From contig CP060262.1 in assembly GCA_022646745.1 (NCBI GenBank), forward strand, positions 1,410,001-1,442,000: a DNA stretch of 32,000 nt. The letters run 5' to 3'. The stretch comes from Planctomycetales bacterium. GTDB taxonomy: Bacteria; 4484-113; JAFGCY01. How positions within the stretch are numbered: the stretch's first letter is position 1; each line of letters begins with the position of its first letter. Shown in pieces: positions 2,815 to 26,708 of this stretch. Under the pieces are notes generated by a model, which was not told the origin of the DNA, searched no databases, and saw only the letters and a list, made by a program, of their open reading frames with translations. A program made the position numbers and the translations under genes.

Positions 2815-2910
2815 CCGCTCAACTAATAATACCGACTGCGGCATGCTAGCAGTGCAGTCTTGGCCGGCCTGGCAATCGGCTATGCTATTTCCCGGCACCG
2901 GAGGAAGGCG

Positions 2911-3576
2911 ATGAGCAAGCAGTCACTGGCACAGAAACTTGAGGAGCTCGTGCGCAATTCGCAGATCAACGAGCAGCAGCTGGACATCCTGCTGGCCGGT
3001 TTCAGGCGCCTGTCCGGCAGCGGCCTGCTTGAGACCGCCCTGCGCGAGGGCGCCCAGGCACCGGACTTCCGCCTGGAGGACACCAATGGGAACTTTCAGG
3101 AACTGAATGCCTGGCTGGAGCATGGCCCGGTGCTCCTGCAGTTCTTCCGCGGCGACTGGTGCCCCTTCTGCCAGGCCCAGCTCAGGGAGCTGACCGCGCA
3201 GAAGGAGCAGATCACCGCACTTGGTACGAGCATCCTCTGCGTCAGTCCTGAGAGCCCGGACAGGCACCGCGCGATGATGGAGAAGCATGGCATCGAGCTG
3301 ATGCTCCTGAGTGACCCGGGCGGGGCGGTTGCCAACCGCTACGGCATCGCCTATGACCTGAACGCCGCGGAAAGCGAGCTGTACGGCGAGCTGGGAATCG
3401 AGCTGACCCGGAAGGCGGACAGCGGTTCTGATTTCCTGCCGATCCCGGCCAGCTACATCGTGCTGCCCGGTGGCCGGATCAGCTACAGCTACATCGATCC
3501 GGACTGGCGCAAGCGCTCGGAACCAGCCGACCTGCTCGGCCGGCTGCAGGCGCTCGCAGCGGGAGGCCAGGGCTGA
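2911..3576 (+). CDS. AhpC/TSA-family thioredoxin-fold protein (peroxiredoxin-like, CxxC type)
   Basis: FFRGDWCPFCQAQLREL thioredoxin-fold CPFC motif. ATG at 2911 is preceded by GGAGGAAGG (2900-2908). Divergent from dnaG. Confidence 0.8.
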   Translation: MSKQSLAQKLEELVRNSQINEQQLDILLAGFRRLSGSGLLETALREGAQAPDFRLEDTNGNFQELNAWLEHGPVLLQFFRGDWCPFCQAQLRELTAQKEQITALGTSILCVSPESPDRHRAMMEKHGIELMLLSDPGGAVANRYGIAYDLNAAESELYGELGIELTRKADSGSDFLPIPASYIVLPGGRISYSYIDPDWRKRSEPADLLGRLQALAAGGQG

Positions 3577-3987: not shown

Positions 3988-4719
3988 TCAGTGGCAGGGT
4001 CCGCCGCGCAGGTCGATCTCGCTGATCGCCGCATCGGCATACTTTTTCCCGTCACGCACGCCGATGATCTCCAGCGTGATCACGGGGTCATATTCACCGC
4101 TGAGGTACAGTGGTGGGAAGCTGACTTCCTGGATGTCCATGCTGTCCTGCAGGTCCACAACGCAGGCCGGCACACCGTTGAGTGAGACCTTCAGCATCAG
4201 CGGGCAGGCGTTTGCCAGGTGCAGGGCCTGGCTCTTGGCATAGCCGGTCACGATCTCCAGCCCGTTGACATACTGCTGCTGATAGGAACCACCATCCATG
4301 TTCTCCCCGCCATGCGTGCGGAAGGTGAATTCCAGCGACTGTCCGACGCCGTTCCCTTCCACACCCTCCACCCAGGCGGTGGTGTAGTCAAAGTCCATGC
4401 ACTGGTCCGCATCGTACTTCAGGCCGGCACTGTCCTCCAGGCTGGATGAGGCATACAGGTCGATCACCGGGGCGCAGCAGTTCACATAGCTGCACCAGCC
4501 CTCCCGCTCGCGGAATTCCTCAAGCGGCGGCAGCTGCTCCATGATCTTCGCCGAGTACAGCGGCAGGCCGTCATGCTCACCGGATGCGAATGCTGCAGCG
4601 GCATTGTTCAGCCATTCACGTGCCTCGGCGGCATTGGCCTCCTCGTCTATCTCATCCGCCAGAGCGGATGTGAAGCACAGCACTAGCATTGCCATAATCA
4701 GGGCGGTGGTGTATCGCAT
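3988..4719 (-). CDS. secreted protein with discoidin-like / NADase-type glycan-binding-like C-terminal domain
   Basis: Signal peptide MRYTTALIMAMLVLCFTSALA. C-terminal half shows TAWVEGVEGNGVGQSLEFTF...IVTGYAKSQ...GKKYADAAISEIDLRG, a pattern I associate with that glycan-binding beta-sandwich family (recalled, not searched). Confidence 0.7.
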   Translation of the reverse strand: MRYTTALIMAMLVLCFTSALADEIDEEANAAEAREWLNNAAAAFASGEHDGLPLYSAKIMEQLPPLEEFREREGWCSYVNCCAPVIDLYASSSLEDSAGLKYDADQCMDFDYTTAWVEGVEGNGVGQSLEFTFRTHGGENMDGGSYQQQYVNGLEIVTGYAKSQALHLANACPLMLKVSLNGVPACVVDLQDSMDIQEVSFPPLYLSGEYDPVITLEIIGVRDGKKYADAAISEIDLRGGPCH

Positions 4720-4841
4720 GCCTGCATTATCGCACCCGCATCCAGCAACCGGGCAGGGCTGCCCGCGCGGGCTCCGATGGTAGAATCTGTCCGCCGCAGC
4801 CCATCCAGAGGCTGTTAATGTCCGTCAGGAGGAAGTCAGGA

Positions 4842-5381
4842 ATGAGTGCAGAAGCACCAGCCTATGCAGGCGTTCCGCTCGTGGGCAACCCTGCCCCCGA
4901 GTGGAAGGCGACCGGTTATCTGAATGGTGAATTCAAGGAGTACTCCAGCGAGGCACTGAAGGGCAAGTGGTACATGCTGTTCTTCTACCCGCTGGACTTT
5001 ACCCCGCTTTGAAGCACGGAAATGCCCGCAGTTGGCGAGGCAGCATCTGAATTCAGCGGGATGGGCTGCGAGGTGTTCGGCGTGAGCATCGACAGCCAGT
5101 TCAGCCACCAGGCCTGGGTCGAGAAGGACCTCGGCGGCCTGAACTACCCGCTGCTGGCGGACATGGGCCATCGCATGAGCCGCTCCTACGGTGTGCTGGC
5201 GGCAGCCGGAATTGCCCTGCGTGGCGTGTTCTTCGTTGACCCGAAGGGCATCGTGCAGTTTGCCAGCATCTACAACCTGCAGGTCGGACGCAATACCGAG
5301 GAACTGATCAGGACACTCGCCGCCCTGCAGGCTGGTGGTGCCTGCCCGATCAACTGGAAACGGGGAGACAAGACCCTGTAG
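4842..5381 (+). CDS. 2-Cys peroxiredoxin (AhpC/Prx1 type) with in-frame TGA (5010-5012) at the peroxidatic Cys position; probable selenocysteine peroxiredoxin
   Basis: Track ORFs 4818..5012 and 5022..5381 are in the same frame (5022-4818=204). The joined product reads ...KGKWYMLFFYPLDFTPL[TGA]STEMPAVG...GVSIDSQFSHQAW...ALRGVFFVDPKG...GGACPINWKRGDKTL. This aligns with the canonical FYPxDFTFVCPTE, with TGA exactly on the catalytic Cys. The resolving Cys motif (CPxNWxxG) is intact. AGGAGG (4827-4832) lies 9 nt before ATG 4842; the alternative start is ATG 4818. Confidence 0.8.
5023..5042 (+). promoter_or_regulatory. candidate bacterial SECIS hairpin
   Basis: Starts 10 nt after the TGA. Pairs are t5023-a5042, g-c, c-g, c-g, then bulged a5038, then c5027-g5037, g-c, c-g, with apical loop AGUUG (5030-5034). 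Spacing, a bulge and a G/U-containing apical loop are the hallmarks of bacterial SECIS elements such as the one in fdhF. Confidence 0.55.
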
Positions 5382-5413
5382 CTTGCTGACCTGATTCTCA
5401 CGATTATGAAAGC

Positions 5414-5442
5414 AAAGGGAAGGCCATGGCCTTCCCTTTTTT
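5414..5442. terminator. bidirectional rho-independent terminator between the convergent prx and the secreted-protein gene
   Basis: aaagggaaggcc-at-ggccttcccttt perfect palindrome followed by a T run (tttttt) on the plus strand and an A run on the other side. Confidence 0.7.
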
Positions 5443-5472
5443 GTTGCCAGATTTATTGCCAGCTGTCCTTGC

Positions 5473-7116
5473 CTACTCCGCCCGGTACAACCAGGCGATC
5501 GGCCAGACCTCGCCAAGCACTATCTCATCGCCGCTGTTGAGGATCGTGAACACCCCGGGGCCCATCACCACCTGGTCCTCGGAGTCGAACACGGTCCAGG
5601 TCAGGTCGAGGCCTTCCGGCGAGGGGATCTCCGTTGGCAGCCAGTCCACCACGAATTCATACTCACCCAGCTCAGCCAGTTCGGTGAAGCCGATCCATTC
5701 CGTTGATGTACCGGCGGTGCTGCTGTCGTCACTGAATGTCAGCTGCCCGGCCAGGTCATCCGTCCAGCCCGGGCCGGCATAGAGGTATGAGGGGGACTCA
5801 ACCCACAGGTCGATGTTCTGCTCCACGTCGTCCCAGTCCACCTGCAGCCGGTAGCCGGGTTGCCAGCCGCCTGCCTGCGGCCAGCTGGCCGGGTCCTGGC
5901 GCAGGTAGAGGTAGTCAAAGGCGCCGTTGAAGCCCGGGGTGACGTTGCCAAGTGACTGCTTCAGCGCTCCCTCCGAGTCATACAGCCTAAGGGCATATGT
6001 CTGGCCCGGGGCGTTGTGCAGCTCCAGCAGGAAGCCGCCGGAGTTGGCATCCACGAGTGTCGCACTCTCCAATGCCACGCCGCTGACCGCGCTGTCCTCG
6101 CTGAACTGCACCATGCCGGCCATGCCCTCCGGTGACTCCGGGAAGCCCTCCGTGTTGTCAGGTCCCAGCAGCACGAGGGTGCTGTCCGCCAGCGGGTCCT
6201 GCCAGCTCACTTCGAAGCGGTCACCCGGCACCCAGTCGAAGATGAAGTCCTCAAAGCGCTCGCTGAAGGATGCGCCGAGGAAGTTGGTGTTTGTTGTCAC
6301 GTTGCCGGCACTGTCCCGGGCCCGTACGCCGTAGTCAAAGGATTCGGTGCTTTCCTCAGGCACGATCACATGCGTGTCAAGGAAGCCGGCCGGCACCACC
6401 TGCTGCGGGTTGTCCCAGTCAATCCCTTCACTGCTCAATGCCTGGTAGACCAGGTATTCCACCGGACCGCTTTCACTGTCAGTCGCCTCATGCCAGCTCA
6501 GTTCAACCCACAGGTGGCTGGCATCCACACTGATGATCCCCTCACCATCAGTCCAGGCCGGCGGGGTGACATCCGTGTCCGGCACACCGTAGTTGAGGGT
6601 CAGCCCGACCTGCCCGCTGGCATCCAGCGGTGCGATCACGGCGAAGTAGATGGAACCACCCGAATTGGTGTAGTCCCCCTCCGGCAGGGCCAGCAGCGCT
6701 TCTTCGGTCAGGTTGCTGCCGATGTACTTCCAGCGCCCGTTGCCATAATCACTGACCGCCACGTGCAGGCCGCTCAGCGTCCCACTCAGTGCGATCGATG
6801 CAGCCGGCTCGTCATCAATGTCCACGCCGACGATGCTCCAGGCGAAGGATGGGCCGTCCAGGCTGAGCACACTGCCTTCCCATGTGCAGTTCAGGGAAGC
6901 CGCCTGGTCAGCCTCGGTGAACACATGCTGCATCAGCGCTGAGGTCCCGCGCGGGGCTTCCCCGGCAGGCAGTCCGGGCAGCTGCTGCGCCATGCTTGCC
7001 GCAGGCTGGTGCAGGGGCATCGCGCTGTCCTGGGCGCAGCTGCCGGCGCACAGGGCGATGGCAAGCACGCAGATGATGGCAGGGCTGAGTTTCGCTGGCA
7101 GGCGGGTCAGTCGCAT
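5473..7116 (-). CDS. secreted (possibly lipo-) protein with fibronectin type III-like segment, function unknown
   Basis: Trimmed to ATG 7116 (MRLTRLPAKLSPAIICVLAIALCAGSCAQ, signal peptide with a possible lipobox; GAGGA 8 nt upstream). FN3-like segment: PPAWTDGEGIISVDASHLWVELSWHEATDSESGPVEYLVY. Confidence 0.75.
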   Translation of the reverse strand: MRLTRLPAKLSPAIICVLAIALCAGSCAQDSAMPLHQPAASMAQQLPGLPAGEAPRGTSALMQHVFTEADQAASLNCTWEGSVLSLDGPSFAWSIVGVDIDDEPAASIALSGTLSGLHVAVSDYGNGRWKYIGSNLTEEALLALPEGDYTNSGGSIYFAVIAPLDASGQVGLTLNYGVPDTDVTPPAWTDGEGIISVDASHLWVELSWHEATDSESGPVEYLVYQALSSEGIDWDNPQQVVPAGFLDTHVIVPEESTESFDYGVRARDSAGNVTTNTNFLGASFSERFEDFIFDWVPGDRFEVSWQDPLADSTLVLLGPDNTEGFPESPEGMAGMVQFSEDSAVSGVALESATLVDANSGGFLLELHNAPGQTYALRLYDSEGALKQSLGNVTPGFNGAFDYLYLRQDPASWPQAGGWQPGYRLQVDWDDVEQNIDLWVESPSYLYAGPGWTDDLAGQLTFSDDSSTAGTSTEWIGFTELAELGEYEFVVDWLPTEIPSPEGLDLTWTVFDSEDQVVMGPGVFTILNSGDEIVLGEVWPIAWLYRAE

Positions 7117-8312: not shown

Positions 8313-9296
8313 ATGTGTTATCTTCCTCGCGTGAACAGATTCATTCCCCTGCTGCTGGCCTCTCTGGTCCTGCTGGCCGCCCGTCCGGCGCTGGCCCAGG
8401 ATCGCGCACTCGTAATCCGCGAGCTGTCCGTGTTTGACCTGGCGCTAGGTGCCGACTCCGCCGCCCGCAGCTTCGACTACGAGGAAGCCAATGAACTGGG
8501 CCTGTACGCCCTGCTCGACATCCGCGGCCTCGACGGGCGGCGCAATGAGAAGGTCGACATGTTCATGGTGGTCTATCGCGCGGAGGATGAGGAGCGCAAG
8601 CATCCGCTGCTCAAGCAGAAGCGCACGGAAAGCCTTGGCAACGGCGAATTCGTGGTCGAGTTCCGCGAGTTCATGGATGCTGATTCCTGGTTTGACGATT
8701 GCGACTTCACCGCCGTGCTGGAAGCTTCGCTCAAGGGTGCGAAGACCGTCAGCCTGGAGCAGGACTTCACGATCGAGGGGCCCCGCATGCCCTCCGTCGG
8801 CTTTGACGACTTCCAGGTCTACAGCTGGGAGGAGGGACCGGGCTATGACAGGCTGGAGGCCGGCGATGAATTCGTGATCGACCTGGTTGTCACGGTGGAT
8901 GGCAACGAGACCGGGCTGGAACCGCGCCTGCGCCTGCTGGCGGTGATGGAGGACGACCTGTGGTTCATGGATCCGGAGGATGAATACCTGCCCAGCGGGC
9001 CGAACTGGAACGAGGCCTGGCTGCGCGGCGGTGGCAGTGAGTGGCGGGTGTATGCCCGCGGCCGCCTGCCGATCTACTATGAGCACCCCTTTGACTATTA
9101 CCACGACTGGCGCATCTACGCCTTCGTCAGCTTCGGCGAGAACCCGCAGCGGGAGTCGGACTACATCATGCTGACGCTTACCGACCCGGATGCCGGCGAG
9201 CTGCGGGAAACTGACAACGTGGTGGAACGCCTGCCGCAGCTGGTCAGCGGGGCGCACTGGACGATCCGCCAGACCAAGGGGCCAATGGAGGACTGA
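8313..9296 (+). CDS. secreted protein, function unknown
   Basis: ATG 8313 with GGAG upstream. Signal peptide (MCYLPRVNRFIPLLLASLVLLAARPALAQ). No recognisable catalytic motif. Confidence 0.7.
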   Translation: MCYLPRVNRFIPLLLASLVLLAARPALAQDRALVIRELSVFDLALGADSAARSFDYEEANELGLYALLDIRGLDGRRNEKVDMFMVVYRAEDEERKHPLLKQKRTESLGNGEFVVEFREFMDADSWFDDCDFTAVLEASLKGAKTVSLEQDFTIEGPRMPSVGFDDFQVYSWEEGPGYDRLEAGDEFVIDLVVTVDGNETGLEPRLRLLAVMEDDLWFMDPEDEYLPSGPNWNEAWLRGGGSEWRVYARGRLPIYYEHPFDYYHDWRIYAFVSFGENPQRESDYIMLTLTDPDAGELRETDNVVERLPQLVSGAHWTIRQTKGPMED

Positions 9297-9301
9297 CGGT
9301 T

Positions 9302-9946
9302 CTAGAAGAACCAGTCGTCGAAGATCACTGAGCCGGGCTCTGCGCCATACACAATGATGTGCGTCGCAGACTGCGCCTTATGTCCGGCAGCGCCTTCACG
9401 CAACAGCTCAAGGAGTTTTGCCTGAGCTTCCTCTGCATTGTCAAAGTGCTCGACGAACAGCGCGCCGGCCTGCCATTCCCTGGACTGGAAGTCCGTATAC
9501 AGCCCGTCTGTGACCGGGTCATACAGGTTGTTGTACAGGTTCAGGTTGCTGGCAGCAGAGTTGCCATCCGCATTGTCACTGACCAGGAATTCCGCCAGCA
9601 CCGCCTGTGAGTCTGCGGGCAGCGTACCGGTGCTGCGGTAGTATCTGCCGAGTAGTCCGGTTAATGTTCGCAGGCTGTGTTCAAAGCCGTTCTCGTCCAT
9701 CCAGGCGCCGAGCCTGATCTGCTCGGCCTCACTCAGCTCATGCCCCGGGCTAAGTTCGGCGGCGTCCTGCATGTTCCAGCCGATCCACTGGTACGGTCCA
9801 GGCCCGGCAAGTGATGGGTCACTGGCAATCGTCATGATGCGGCAGTCCTCATTGATGCCGTAGGCAGGCTCCCCGGCCTGCGGGGCTGTGATTGCCAGAG
9901 TCGCAATCAGCAGAGCAGCGGCGGCGGTTCTCAGCAGGTCTTTCAT
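9302..9946 (-). CDS. secreted protein, function unknown
   Basis: Signal peptide MKDLLRTAAAALLIATLAITAPQAG. GGGAGGG 4 nt upstream of the ATG. Convergent with the previous gene, 5 bp apart. Confidence 0.7.
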   Translation of the reverse strand: MKDLLRTAAAALLIATLAITAPQAGEPAYGINEDCRIMTIASDPSLAGPGPYQWIGWNMQDAAELSPGHELSEAEQIRLGAWMDENGFEHSLRTLTGLLGRYYRSTGTLPADSQAVLAEFLVSDNADGNSAASNLNLYNNLYDPVTDGLYTDFQSREWQAGALFVEHFDNAEEAQAKLLELLREGAAGHKAQSATHIIVYGAEPGSVIFDDWFF

Positions 9947-13642: not shown

Positions 13643-14101
13643 TTGAGTCAGGAAAACTCCAGTAAGAATCTCGACGCGGCATCCGATATAGATGTCCCTC
13701 CCCGAAGTTGGTCTGAGCTGATTTCGCTCGCAGAGGCGATGGCGCGCGGGCTGTTCCCGGCCGGGCAGGTGGCCCTGCGCGTGATGGATGACGATTCCAT
13801 CCGCCGCCTGAACCGTGAGTTCCGCAATGTGGACAGCGCCACGGATGTTCTTTCCTTCCCGGCCGACCCCTCCGACTACCCGCACCGCGGGGACCTGGCG
13901 CTCAGCTGGGATGCGGTGCTCAGGCAGGCCCGTGCCAACGGGAACACTGATGTGCAGGAGGCCTGTGCGCTGCTGGCGCACGGCATGCTGCACCTGGCGG
14001 GGCATGACCATCCGGACGATGCCGCCCAGGCGGAAATGGACAGGCTGACGCGCCTGATGTGCGCTGATGCCGGAATCAAGGTGGAAAACTTTGGACACTG
14101 A
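13643..14101 (+). CDS. ybeY: rRNA maturation endoribonuclease YbeY
   Basis: HGMLHLAGHDH zinc-binding motif, DVLSFP motif, 152 aa. Apparent TTG start. Confidence 0.9.
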   Translation: MSQENSSKNLDAASDIDVPPRSWSELISLAEAMARGLFPAGQVALRVMDDDSIRRLNREFRNVDSATDVLSFPADPSDYPHRGDLALSWDAVLRQARANGNTDVQEACALLAHGMLHLAGHDHPDDAAQAEMDRLTRLMCADAGIKVENFGH

Positions 14102-14117
14102 CGTACCCTTACAAGCC

Positions 14118-15356
14118 ATGCTGCTCCTCGACCAGATCTCCTTCACCGGGGGCGTGATGGTCGTGTTCGGCCTGCTGGCCTGCGCCGGCAGCGCACTCGC
14201 GGCAAACTCGGCGGTGGCCGGCCGGATGGCGCGCGTGCTGCGCCATGAAGAGATCCGCCGCACATTGGCCGGCGGCATCGTGCAGCTGCTGCTCGGCTTC
14301 ATCATCCTGTTCATCGGGCTGGGCAGCGTTGTCAACGCCGCCGCCACTGAGCTGAAGGACGCACTGGACCCGCAGTTCCTCGCGGCCAGTTCGCTGGAGG
14401 CCTGGGTGCTGGGCAGCCGCATCGCGCTGTCCCTGCTGCCGGCCGTGCTGCTGCCTGCGATCGGCGTGGTGGCCGGTGCCGTCAGCGCGCGCGGTGAGCG
14501 CATGACCTGGGGTATCCGCACCGGGCAGATCCTCGCCGAGGCATTCGCGAAATGGCTGCCGGCCGGCAATGCCAACGGTGAGGAGGATGAACCGGAGCCG
14601 GAGTTCCGCATCGACCTCGCCAGCGGCGAGGATGTCGAGCAGGAGGAGCGCGAGCTGATCGAGAACATCCTCGAATTCGGCGAGACCACCGCCTCCGAGG
14701 TGATGACCCCGCGCACGGACTTCGTGGCGATTGACAACGGCTGGGAGGGCCCGCGCATCATCGAGACCATCTCCGCCTCGCGCCACAGCCGCTTCCCGGT
14801 CTATGAGGACAGCATTGACAACGTGATCGGGATCCTGCACATCCGCGACCTGATGGAGTACCTCGCGCGCGGCGGTGCCAGTGAGCGGCTTGACCTGCGC
14901 GAGCTGGTGCGAGAGCCGGTGTTCTACCCGGCATCGAAGAAGATTGACGACGTGATGCGCGACCTGCAGCTGCGCAAGAGCCACATGGCGATAGTGCTCG
15001 ACGAGTACGGCGGCACCGCCGGGATGGTCACCATCGAGGACCTGCTGGAGGAGATCGTCGGCGAGATCCAGGACGAGTATGACGACGAGAGCCGCCAGAT
15101 CCACCGCATGGAGGACGGCAGCTGGATCGTCGACGCGCAGTGCCTGCTGAGCGACTTCAACGAGGAGCTCGGGGTCAGCCTCGAGGCCGAGGACGTGGAC
15201 ACACTCGGCGGCTACATTGCCAACTCGCTCGGGCGCATCCCGGAGGAAAGCGACACGGTGGACACCGGGGGCATGACACTCAAGGTGCTCAGCGTGGACC
15301 GCAACCGCATCCGCCGCGTGCGCGTCCAGCCGCATGGCGGCGCCAGCGTGGCCTGA
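14118..15356 (+). CDS. CNNM/DUF21 + CBS pair + CorC_HlyC domain protein (hemolysin/CorC family)
   Basis: TM-rich N-terminus, then [23 protein letters not shown] and [31 protein letters not shown] hallmark motifs. Follows ybeY as in the conserved ybeY-ybeX arrangement. Trimmed to ATG 14118. Confidence 0.9.
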
Positions 15357-19755: not shown

Positions 19756-21213
19756 ATGGCTGGAACACTGAGAGTCCGATTCGCCCCGTCACCGACGGGC
19801 TACCTGCACACCGGTGGCGCGCGCACCGCTCTGTTCAACTACCTCTGGGCCAAGGGCCAGGGCGGCGTGTTCATCCTGCGCGTGGAGGACACCGACGAGG
19901 AGCGCTCCACCGAGGAAAGCATGCGCGCGATCCTCGACGGCCTGCAGTGGCTCGGGATCATGTGGGACGAGGGGCCGGACCCGAAGCAGTTCGGCGAGTC
20001 CATCGGGCCCTTCCCGCCCTACTACCAGAGCATGCGCCGCCCGCTGCACCAGGAATACATGAAGAAGCTCTGGGACGCGGGGCATGTGTTCTACTGTCCG
20101 GCAACGGCTGAGGAAATGACTGGCCCGGACGGCAAGAAGCTGACCTTCTCCCCCTACCGCGACATCACGAGAGAGGAGCAGGAGAAGCGGCTGGCTGCCG
20201 GCGAGGTGATGCCGGTGCGCTTCCGCTGCCCACGTGATGTGGAGGTCAGCTGGGAGGATGCCGTGCGAGGCAAGGTTACGTTCAGCAGCAATGAGGTCGG
20301 CGACTTCGTGCTGTTCAAGGGCAACGGCCAGCCGTTGTACAACTTCGTCGTGGTCTGTGATGACATCGACATGCAGATCACGAACGTGCTGCGCGGCGAG
20401 GACCACATCTCCAACACCCCGAAGCAGATCCTCTTGCATGAGGCGCTTGGGCATACCCCGCCGGAGTTCGGGCATGTGCCGCTGATCGTCGGGATGGACC
20501 GCCAGAGGTTGTCAAAGCGCCACGGTGCCACGGCGGTGGATGCCTACGAGGAGCAGGGTGTGCTGCCGGAGGCGATGGTGAACTTCCTCGCGCTGATCGG
20601 CTGGGCACCTGGGGATGACCGCGAGAAGATGACGCTCGAGGAGATGAAGCAGGCCTTCGATCCGCACCGCTGCACCAAGGCGGCGGGGGCTTTCAACCCT
20701 GACAAGCTGAAATTCTTCAATGAGCTGTACATCCGCGAGCTGTCGCCGGATGCGCTGCTGGAGCGCCTGCGCCGCTTCATCCCGCCTGTCTGGCTTGAGC
20801 ACCGCGGTGAGGACTATGCAAAGCATGTGTTCACCCTGTTCCAGGAGAAGATCGCCTACCTGAACGAGATGGAGGCAAATGCCTGGTATTTCTTCCGCGA
20901 CCCCGTCGAGGCTGACAACAACGAGAAGAGCGTTGCCAAGTTCCTCACGGAGAATGAAAGTGCGAAGCAGGTGTTGTCCGAGATCGCAGCCGGGATGGAA
21001 GCGCTGGGCGATGGCGAGTGGACCGAGGAGAAGCTGGCCCCGATCGTGGACGGCTTCGTGGAGTCAAGCGGACTCGGGCGTGGCAAGGTGATGCAGCCCT
21101 GGCGCGTGGCCCTGACGGGCGATGCGATCAGCCCTGGCTTCTACGACCTCGTTGTCACGCTCGGCAAGGAGACGGTGCTGCGCCGCGTACAGCCCTGGAT
21201 CGACAGGCTGTAG
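19756..21213 (+). CDS. gltX: glutamate--tRNA ligase
   Basis: RFAPSPTGYLHTGGARTALFNY (HIGH-type motif), RLSKRHG (KMSKS-type motif), 485 aa. Confidence 0.95.
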   Translation: MAGTLRVRFAPSPTGYLHTGGARTALFNYLWAKGQGGVFILRVEDTDEERSTEESMRAILDGLQWLGIMWDEGPDPKQFGESIGPFPPYYQSMRRPLHQEYMKKLWDAGHVFYCPATAEEMTGPDGKKLTFSPYRDITREEQEKRLAAGEVMPVRFRCPRDVEVSWEDAVRGKVTFSSNEVGDFVLFKGNGQPLYNFVVVCDDIDMQITNVLRGEDHISNTPKQILLHEALGHTPPEFGHVPLIVGMDRQRLSKRHGATAVDAYEEQGVLPEAMVNFLALIGWAPGDDREKMTLEEMKQAFDPHRCTKAAGAFNPDKLKFFNELYIRELSPDALLERLRRFIPPVWLEHRGEDYAKHVFTLFQEKIAYLNEMEANAWYFFRDPVEADNNEKSVAKFLTENESAKQVLSEIAAGMEALGDGEWTEEKLAPIVDGFVESSGLGRGKVMQPWRVALTGDAISPGFYDLVVTLGKETVLRRVQPWIDRL

Positions 21214-25280: not shown

Positions 25281-26708
25281 TCAGCCCTGCTCGCGAGCCA
25301 GCTGGCCGAGCCGCTGGATCGCCCCCTCCACTTCATCCGTCCAGCGCAGCGCGCAGTTCAGCCGGATGCAGTTGCCATAGCGCGCCTGGCTGGTGAAGAT
25401 CGGCCCCGGCGCAATCGAGATCCCCTCCGCCATCGCCGCCTGGAACAGCCGGATCGCGTTGGCTCCACCCGGCAGCTCCACCCACAGCACGTAGCCACCG
25501 CTGGGCCGGGTCAGGCGTGTGCCGCGCGGGAAGTGCTCGCGCACTGACAGCGAGCAGCGCTCCATGCAGTCCCTGAGTGTGCGGCGGAAGCGGCGCAGGT
25601 GTGCATCATAGGCCCCGCTGGCGAGGAAATCCGCCAGCGCCAGCTGCTGGATCGACGGTGCGCCGATCGTGGTGTTGAACTGCAGCTGCTCCATTTCCCC
25701 GAGCAGGGACTGCCCCGCCGCAATCCAGCCGATGCGCAGCCCGGGCGCCAGGCTCTTCGAGAAGGACGAGCACAGCACCACACGGCCCTCCGTATCCCAG
25801 GCCTTGATCGGCGTCGGGCGGCGGCCGGAGTACTGCAGCTCACCGTAGATGTCGTCCTCCAGCACCATGAAGTCGTGCTTCGCCGCCAGCTCCAGCAGCT
25901 TCTGCTTGGACTGGTCCGGCATCAGGCTGCCGAGCGGGTTGCTGAAGCAGGGGATCGTCAGCACGGCGCGGATCCGCCGCACACTGGCCGCCTCCTCCAG
26001 TGCCCGCAGGTCCATCCCGGTCTGCGGGCTGGTCGGCAGCTCCAGCGCACGCAGGCCGTGGTGCTCCAGCACCTGCAGCAGGCCGAAGAAGGTCGGCGAT
26101 TCCACCGCGACTGTGTCCCCCGGCTTGGTCAGTGCCTGCAGGGTCAGGTTCAGCGCATCCATCCCCCCGCTGGTGATCAGGATGTCCCGCGAGCTCAGCT
26201 CGCCCATCCACTTCAGGCTGCGCGCCGCGATCTGCCGCCGCAGCTCCGGCAGGCCCGGCGGGAACTGGTACTGCATTGCAGCTTCGGTCTGCTCGCGTAC
26301 GCAGCGGCCGAGGATCGAAGCCATCCGCTTCACGGGCAGGAAGTCCAGGCTGGGAGCCGCGCAGCCCAGCTGCACATGCTCCGGGTTGGCCGCACTGTGC
26401 AGGAAGTCGTGCAGCATGCGGTTGCCCGGTACATTGGTTCGTTCCATGTCCGGGCTGGTGATCGCGGGAAGCTCCAGCGGCCGCGCCGTACTGTGTCGCA
26501 CATAGTGGCCGCTCTGGGGCAGGGTCTCGATCAGTCCACGGCTTTCCAGCAGGCCGTAGGCCTGCATCACGGTCGAGATGCTGATGCCGAGTTCCGTGCT
26601 CATCGCACGCAGCGACGGCATCTTGTCCCCGGGTTGCATCACACCGCTGCCGATCCGGCGGGCGATGTTGTCCGCGACAGTTTCGTAAAGGAATCCCTGC
26701 TGAGCCAT
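25281..26708 (-). CDS. MocR-family transcriptional regulator (GntR wHTH + class I aminotransferase-like domain)
   Basis: N-terminal SLRAMSTELGISISTVMQAYGLLESRGLIE wHTH. C-terminal fold-type-I domain with SFSKSLAPGLRIGW (PLP-lysine motif). Its stop abuts the azlD stop with 0 bp between (convergent). Confidence 0.9.
   Translation of the reverse strand: MAQQGFLYETVADNIARRIGSGVMQPGDKMPSLRAMSTELGISISTVMQAYGLLESRGLIETLPQSGHYVRHSTARPLELPAITSPDMERTNVPGNRMLHDFLHSAANPEHVQLGCAAPSLDFLPVKRMASILGRCVREQTEAAMQYQFPPGLPELRRQIAARSLKWMGELSSRDILITSGGMDALNLTLQALTKPGDTVAVESPTFFGLLQVLEHHGLRALELPTSPQTGMDLRALEEAASVRRIRAVLTIPCFSNPLGSLMPDQSKQKLLELAAKHDFMVLEDDIYGELQYSGRRPTPIKAWDTEGRVVLCSSFSKSLAPGLRIGWIAAGQSLLGEMEQLQFNTTIGAPSIQQLALADFLASGAYDAHLRRFRRTLRDCMERCSLSVREHFPRGTRLTRPSGGYVLWVELPGGANAIRLFQAAMAEGISIAPGPIFTSQARYGNCIRLNCALRWTDEVEGAIQRLGQLAREQG

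Follow-up and report, generated by a model that had tools for sequence, protein, structure and literature searches.

The model bacterial SECIS is that of E. coli fdhF, whose loop is GGUC and whose 5′ arm carries a bulged U. The reference typical 2-Cys peroxiredoxin (Prx) is human peroxiredoxin-2 (PRDX2; 5ijt, 1qmv), and among Sec-containing Prx the described system is PrxU of Eubacterium acidaminophilum (NF040737). PrxU has the AhpC/TSA fold, the motif PxxxTxxU with UGA at the peroxidatic position, and a SECIS hairpin inside the coding sequence; the gene considered here shares these traits, its own hairpin being a candidate SECIS. According to Sohling et al., as related in PMC13188914, a Sec-Prx was first characterised biochemically in 2001, and five independent Cys-to-Sec events have been counted among 12 Sec-Prx (PMC1794560). 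Within the 32,000-nucleotide stretch of DNA that we analysed (the window), positions 4842-5381 very probably encode one selenoprotein, a short typical 2-Cys Prx in which the UGA at 5010-5012 would be decoded as Sec. A preliminary description of this DNA had seen a probable selenoprotein split in two by ORF calling, and this reading is supported by the column in which the TGA falls, by the orthologues, by a hairpin downstream of the TGA and by the stop codons of neighbouring genes.

To place the gene among known Sec-Prx, we scanned one genome per GTDB species for the pattern FYPxDFTxx-TGA-xTE. Matches were found in at least 120 species belonging to many phyla, so the statement in the preliminary description that Sec-Prx are uncommon in bacteria did not hold up. 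Nearly all of the matches listed are genuine Prx genes with 140-160 codons after the TGA, and most are of the PrxU type (NF040737). In 68 PrxU-type sequences, positions +13..+19 pair with +24..+30 to form a helix enclosing the loop GGUC or AGUU at +20..+23 (46 nt from the TGA). The helix is paired in 91.8% of cells. Of the six slid controls, five gave values of 33-45% and the one at -3 gave 77.9%. Four of the seven pairs of the helix show compensatory changes, and the covariation score is 0.424 as against 0.124 in shuffles. A second Sec-Prx subfamily, with the active-site sequence FFYPADFTFVUATEF (L016, L021, L023, L086, L088, L093, L116, L126 and L135), has hosts in Rokubacteria, Planctomycetota, Nitrospirota and Krumholzibacteria, and its downstream hairpin is a different one, with 3 nt in the loop and a stem of 8-9 bp (GCUGCUC...GAGCAGC). 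A third type, AFYPKDFTGGUTTEL, occurs in Poribacteria. The Sec-peroxiredoxins therefore comprise several SECIS types.

Direct translation of window 4842-5381 (+) gave a single frame of 179 codons, in which the sole internal stop is the TGA at 5010-5012 and the terminal stop is the TAG at 5379-5381. Both mechanical ORFs (4818/4842-5012 and 5022-5381) lie in this one frame, as had been reported, and the peptide across the proposed Sec site reads FYPLDFTPL-U-STEMPAVGEAASEF. The features of the locus are as follows.

4828..4833, + strand: Shine-Dalgarno sequence AGGAGG, 8 nt 5′ of the ATG at 4842, read directly.
4842..5381, + strand: coding sequence of a typical 2-Cys peroxiredoxin of 179 residues with proposed Sec (U57) at the peroxidatic position, from Pfam, PRDX2 and homologue alignment.
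5010..5012, + strand: in-frame UGA, the proposed Sec codon, in the motif P50-x-x-x-T54-x-x-U57, at the peroxidatic Cys column of PRDX2.
5017..5049, + strand: candidate bacterial SECIS, from fold energies, published rules and conservation.
5343..5345, + strand: codon TGC of the resolving Cys, C168, in the motif GGACPINWKRG, an invariant column that matches the resolving Cys of PRDX2.
5414..5445, + strand: intrinsic terminator with an 11-bp stem, AAAGGGAAGGCC/GGCCTTCCCTTT (5414-5439), followed by a T run.

DNA alignment with relatives showed that the block TCAGGAGGAA.TCAG.AATGA around the start of the gene is kept in all three of the lineages described below, and that the terminator is kept in L001, L015 and L008. 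Since both the AGGAGG and the strong intrinsic terminator are conserved in relatives, the Prx gene is a monocistronic unit. An antisense ORF of 226 codons (window 4836-5516, -) spans the entire gene; its third-position G+C of 0.58 is low compared to the real genes of this region, so that the high G+C content is the likeliest reason for its existence.

When the TGA was translated as Cys, the product matched PF00578 (AhpC/TSA) with E=6e-37 and 126.7 bits, well over the gathering cut-off of 26 bits, across profile positions 1-123 of 124. Residues 10-178 aligned with human PRDX2 (5ijt) with E=2e-46, the TGA column falling on the peroxidatic Cys of the PRDX2 motif FTFVCPTE and CPINW lying opposite the resolving-Cys motif CPAGW. 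Both catalytic positions thus correspond to those of PRDX2, which differs in having Cys rather than Sec and in a longer C-terminal tail that is missing in the window protein. Alignment with the 14 nearest homologues of full length showed that every one of them carries Cys in the peroxidatic column and that P50, T54, R127 and C168 are invariant. A PF00578 match above the gathering score, the PxxxTxxC/U motif, a conserved Arg and a C-terminal resolving Cys were therefore all found, as expected of a typical 2-Cys Prx (Prx1/AhpC subfamily). These results confirm the earlier view of a complete 2-Cys Prx in which TGA replaces the catalytic Cys and the resolving-Cys motif is intact. The protein reached neither of two equivalog cut-offs, scoring 139 bits against the curated 270 of PrxU (NF040737) and 144.5 bits against the curated 272 of AhpC (TIGR03137).

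The highest identity, 46-53%, was to sampled short (~173-residue) Cys-type 2-Cys Prx, namely those of Kuenenia/Brocadiaceae, of other Planctomycetota (P0027, P0034 and P0036) and of metagenomic origin (P0004, P0005 and P0009). Identity to the Sec-type proteins among the GTDB-scan matches listed was 35-44%. The short Cys-type proteins share with the window protein its length class, the C-terminal end GxKTL and the resolving-Cys motif, and P0005 and P0009 also have FTPV before the active site. They differ in carrying TGC or TGT at the peroxidatic position and in being non-syntenic with the window. For lack of synteny, P0005 was rejected as a Cys orthologue and cannot be called one. Cys and Sec thus alternate at this column, with Cys in the nearest homologues and TGA in the window clade. 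Because identity to the Cys forms exceeds that to the Sec forms, these alignments suggest that a Cys-to-Sec switch inside the clade of short 2-Cys Prx, distinct from that of the common PrxU selenoproteins, gave rise to the gene.

We then considered whether the TGA could have lost its role as a stop codon. Three genes of the window, CorC_HlyC (14067-15356), a GntR-aminotransferase (25281-26708) and NADase_transloc (3988-4719), have a complete Pfam domain at the C-terminus with a TGA immediately behind it, and TGA also terminates DnaG (925-2898). The window has a G+C content of 62.5%. To our knowledge, such a composition is unlike that of the known TGA-recoded lineages. A genome-wide reassignment of TGA (translation table 4 or 25) has the in-frame TGA itself in its favour and nothing else; since TGA is a genuine stop in the neighbouring genes, the genetic code is not reassigned here, and this explanation was refuted, its residual probability being close to nil. 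The preliminary description had likewise judged reassignment unlikely from the use of TGA as an ordinary stop by the neighbours, which DnaG and the three genes with complete Pfam domains bear out.

In the databases, every one of the closest proteins is a C-terminal fragment, 119 or 106 residues long (P0001, 99%; P0003, 87%; P0002, 82%). In the related contigs, each C-terminal fragment is preceded in the same frame by a 56-residue AhpC/TSA fragment, and gene callers give 56 plus 119 or 106 residues in every one of these contigs. DNA alignment placed the TGA at the identical codon in three orthologous lineages, the first comprising the window together with L015 and L221-223, the second L005-L014 and the third L001-L004; amino-acid identity to the window protein is 87.7% for L005-L014 and 78.8% for L001-L004. 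In total, at least 18 independent contigs, which differ in sample and assembler (ENA, Logan assemblies), carry the split gene with its TGA. L221, which comes from another sample, matches the window in every base across the gene (window 4803-5421). A scan of metagenome contigs with the Prx protein gave a best identity of 40%, with the TGA motif present in none of 80 loci.

Synonymous and non-synonymous codon differences were counted by hand on the codon alignments A4 and A5. Between the window and L005, the 122 codons downstream of the TGA contain 35 synonymous and 14 non-synonymous differences, and the 56 codons upstream contain 12 and 8, respectively, five of the latter eight lying in the first ten residues. 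Downstream of the TGA, the window and L001 differ by 26 synonymous and 22 non-synonymous changes. The corresponding dN/dS, a rough hand estimate, is 0.15-0.4, and no lineage has an indel or frameshift across the TGA. Synonymous differences thus outnumber non-synonymous ones although about three-quarters of sites are non-synonymous, which argues that both halves of the Prx are under purifying selection. The L001 orthologue stands apart in its larger non-synonymous share (26 vs 22) and, relative to window 5013-5378, it has three extra Cys, two of them in place of S and one in place of N.

These comparisons bear on whether the gene is dead or the TGA an artefact. In favour of a pseudogene, or of a sequencing or assembly error, it can be said that a single base change turns TGC or TGT into TGA. 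However, the same TGA recurs across the contigs, samples, assemblers and diverged lineages listed above, synonymous changes predominate on both sides of it with no frameshift, and the ribosome-binding site and terminator are conserved. Sequencing error was therefore discarded on the strength of this recurrence and of the base-identical L221, and a pseudogene on that of purifying selection on both halves and the absence of indels; jointly we regard the two as extremely unlikely.

A further explanation takes the annotation at face value: the gene would truly be split into a 56-residue peptide ending at the TGA and a 119-residue fragment starting from the ATG at 5022, which act separately or reassemble. 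This ATG is kept in all three lineages and is the start used by the gene callers, but it has no recognisable Shine-Dalgarno sequence before it (the upstream sequence is AGCACGGAA), and the peroxidatic residue would belong to neither fragment. Moreover, the frame is held across the stop in every lineage, and PrxU, a proven selenoprotein, has the same arrangement. We consider a true split very unlikely.

Next, we examined the sequence downstream of the TGA for a SECIS. The minimum-free-energy fold contains a hairpin at 5023-5042, UGCCCGC-AGUUG-GCG(A)GGCA, with an energy of -9.3 kcal/mol. Its upper stem (5023-5029/5035-5042) has 7 bp and a bulged A5038, its apical loop is AGUUG (5030-5034), and a lower stem (5017-5021/5045-5049) extends it to -12.8 kcal/mol. 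The hairpin begins 10 nt after the UGA and the apical loop 17 nt after it. The 7 bp, the single-base bulge, the AGUUG loop and the distance of ten nt are therefore as had been described. Hairpin stability is somewhat above chance and indecisive alone, since four of 200 shuffles fold as well (z-score -2.3, a modest value).

The candidate agrees with all of the rules that make up the published bacterial SECIS consensus (PMC13188914), as had been proposed from its geometry. The apical loop is 5 nt long (rule, 3-9 nt) and the upper stem 7 bp (4-16 bp); the spacing between UGA and loop is 17 nt (16-37 nt), and the minimum free energy of -9.3 kcal/mol is below the limit of -7.5 kcal/mol. The consensus also calls for a G at loop position 1 or 2, after which G or U is usual; the loop here begins A-G-U, with the G at position 2. 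Because these rules are permissive, stronger tests were sought.

The hairpin lies within a 26-nt run, ACGGAAATGCCCGCAGTTGGCGAGGC, that is invariant in the three lineages; downstream of the TGA, no other invariant run is as long. A 25-nt invariant run also occurs upstream in the Prx gene, and a hand estimate of the excess conservation gave p~0.05; given that invariant runs of similar length occur elsewhere in the gene, the excess is only suggestive. The pairs of 5017-5049 are represented by only three distinct sequences, among which nine of the 12 pairs never vary, two show one-sided compatible changes and none shows a compensatory change. Of the three variable paired positions, two remain paired (U-A becomes U-G, and G-U becomes G-C), and the third makes or breaks a single terminal pair. 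The TGA and the hairpin are kept together in all three lineages, which amount to at least 18 contigs. At the equivalent site, no hairpin is present in the two nearest Cys-type genes, which are less G+C-rich (-0.2 and -0.4 kcal/mol). No Rfam family reached its gathering score within the window, and a permissive Rfam scan of 4950-5120 returned a snoRNA match alone, which we dismissed as meaningless.

The window hairpin has the register of the PrxU SECIS, with the stem starting at +13 and AGUU at +20..+23, and in both PrxU and the window clade the GU of the loop belongs to a Val codon at U+7. The residue at U+7 is F, L, M, I or Y in the ten tabulated nearest Cys homologues and never Val. This difference suggests that the coding sequence was shaped to hold the loop.

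We also built a covariance model, R1, from the 68 PrxU SECIS sequences. It scored 34 held-out PrxU members at 41-63 bits, other Sec-Prx subfamilies at 13-29 bits and L001 at 13.6 bits; the window element reached 7.0 bits, which is not significant (E=1.3, the fifth-ranked match within the window). By this test the hairpin is not a PrxU-type SECIS. Since the other, non-PrxU subfamilies of Sec-Prx also score low, the low score separates SECIS types and does not refute function.

The genes selA, selB and selD, tRNA-Sec and indeed any tRNA were sought in the window and ~23 kb beyond it, and none was found in the ~55 kb of the lineage so covered. This is an absence of data and not evidence of absence. 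It is nevertheless one of two observations in keeping with the UGA being read through as a standard amino acid, by a near-cognate Trp or Cys tRNA or by a suppressor tRNA and without Sec machinery, to yield an ordinary or weakened Prx; the other is that R1 does not recognise the hairpin. General suppression is made unlikely by the TGA codons that end well-defined neighbouring genes, and Trp at the peroxidatic position would inactivate an enzyme that is under purifying selection. Furthermore, the codon lies exactly at the residue that is Sec instead of Cys in no fewer than 120 other species and is followed, at the canonical distance, by a hairpin that agrees with the SECIS rules. Read-through as a standard amino acid is therefore, in our estimation, improbable.

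For decoding as Sec, the mechanism that we envisage follows what is known of the family. A SelB-type elongation factor carrying Sec-tRNA(Sec) would bind the mRNA hairpin, leading to insertion of Sec at the UGA at 5010-5012. The selenolate of U57 would attack the peroxide, forming a selenenic acid, which C168 of the partner subunit would resolve to a selenenylsulfide. A thioredoxin-like reductant would then reduce the selenenylsulfide and recycle the enzyme.

Window 2860-3576 (+) encodes an AhpC/TSA-like protein in which the CxxC motif reads WCPFC, and this gene is conserved next to that of the Sec-Prx: L001, L005 and L221-223 all have the order AhpC/TSA-like protein, NADase_transloc (on the opposite strand) and Sec-Prx. 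The 2860-3576 protein is similar to the 'Prx-like thiol:disulfide oxidoreductase' in its Cys form; other bacteria have this oxidoreductase as a UxxC selenoprotein. One may speculate that the 2860-3576 protein could be a thioredoxin-type reductant partner of the Sec-Prx. Further along, L001 has a gene for a 531-residue protein with TPR and TIR_2 domains (L001:14271-15866) between genes of 327 and 214 aa, which abut in the window (9296-9302) and in L222, 5 nt apart. The TIR-domain gene would represent a lineage-specific insertion or deletion, possibly with a role in defence. The GltX protein encoded at window 19756-21213 (+) has relatives from named phyla at ~44% identity, and P0128 at 62%. The ~44% identity to named phyla indicates that the lineage of the window is deep.

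Bringing these strands together, we entertain the more detailed proposal that this is an independently evolved Sec-Prx, derived from a short Cys-type clade and not from PrxU, with its own SECIS variant (AGUUG loop, bulged A) in a deep lineage; the chances for and against this proposal seem to us evenly balanced. If it is true, the gene would give the first indication of a Sec-decoding trait in the lineage of the window, and a clean example of a coding sequence reshaped, by Val at U+7, so that a GU loop is placed in the PrxU register. The selenoprotein assignment would by itself imply Sec use in an uncultured bacterial lineage. It would also call for a correction of annotation: the NCBI entry MCB1187615.1 (L001:10001-10360) holds the 119-residue C-terminal fragment only, as a 'redoxin domain-containing protein', and NCBI and metagenome gene callers alike record a 'redoxin domain' fragment of 119 or 106 residues and not the full selenoenzyme.

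Sec-peroxiredoxins are already established, common and widespread, and the window gene adds a family member with its own SECIS variant; it does not overturn the current understanding. It would add to the apparently independent Cys-to-Sec switches of peroxiredoxins, whose recurrence is already documented (PMC1794560). It further suggests that a SECIS may vary in sequence, loop and bulge geometry while its register stays, and SECIS search models trained on PrxU alone would miss the window hairpin.

Compared with the SECIS of E. coli fdhF, the candidate is alike in being a coding-region hairpin directly after the UGA, with a single bulged base in the upper stem and a small apical loop whose GU follows the UGA at a distance of ~18-20 nt. 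It differs in sequence, in having AGUUG and not GGUC as its loop, and in carrying its bulged A on the 3′ arm; its binding by SelB is putative. With the SECIS of PrxU it shares the stem from +13 and a loop of the form RGUY at +20..+23. However, the PrxU element has a 7-bp stem and a 4-nt loop (GGUC or AGUU), whereas in the window hairpin the loop is 5 nt long and the stem, with its bulged A, has another sequence. As to the proteins, PrxU is ~230 aa long, the window protein 179 aa, identity is 35-44%, and the active site continues as U(A/P)TE(V/L) in PrxU and as USTEM in the window protein.
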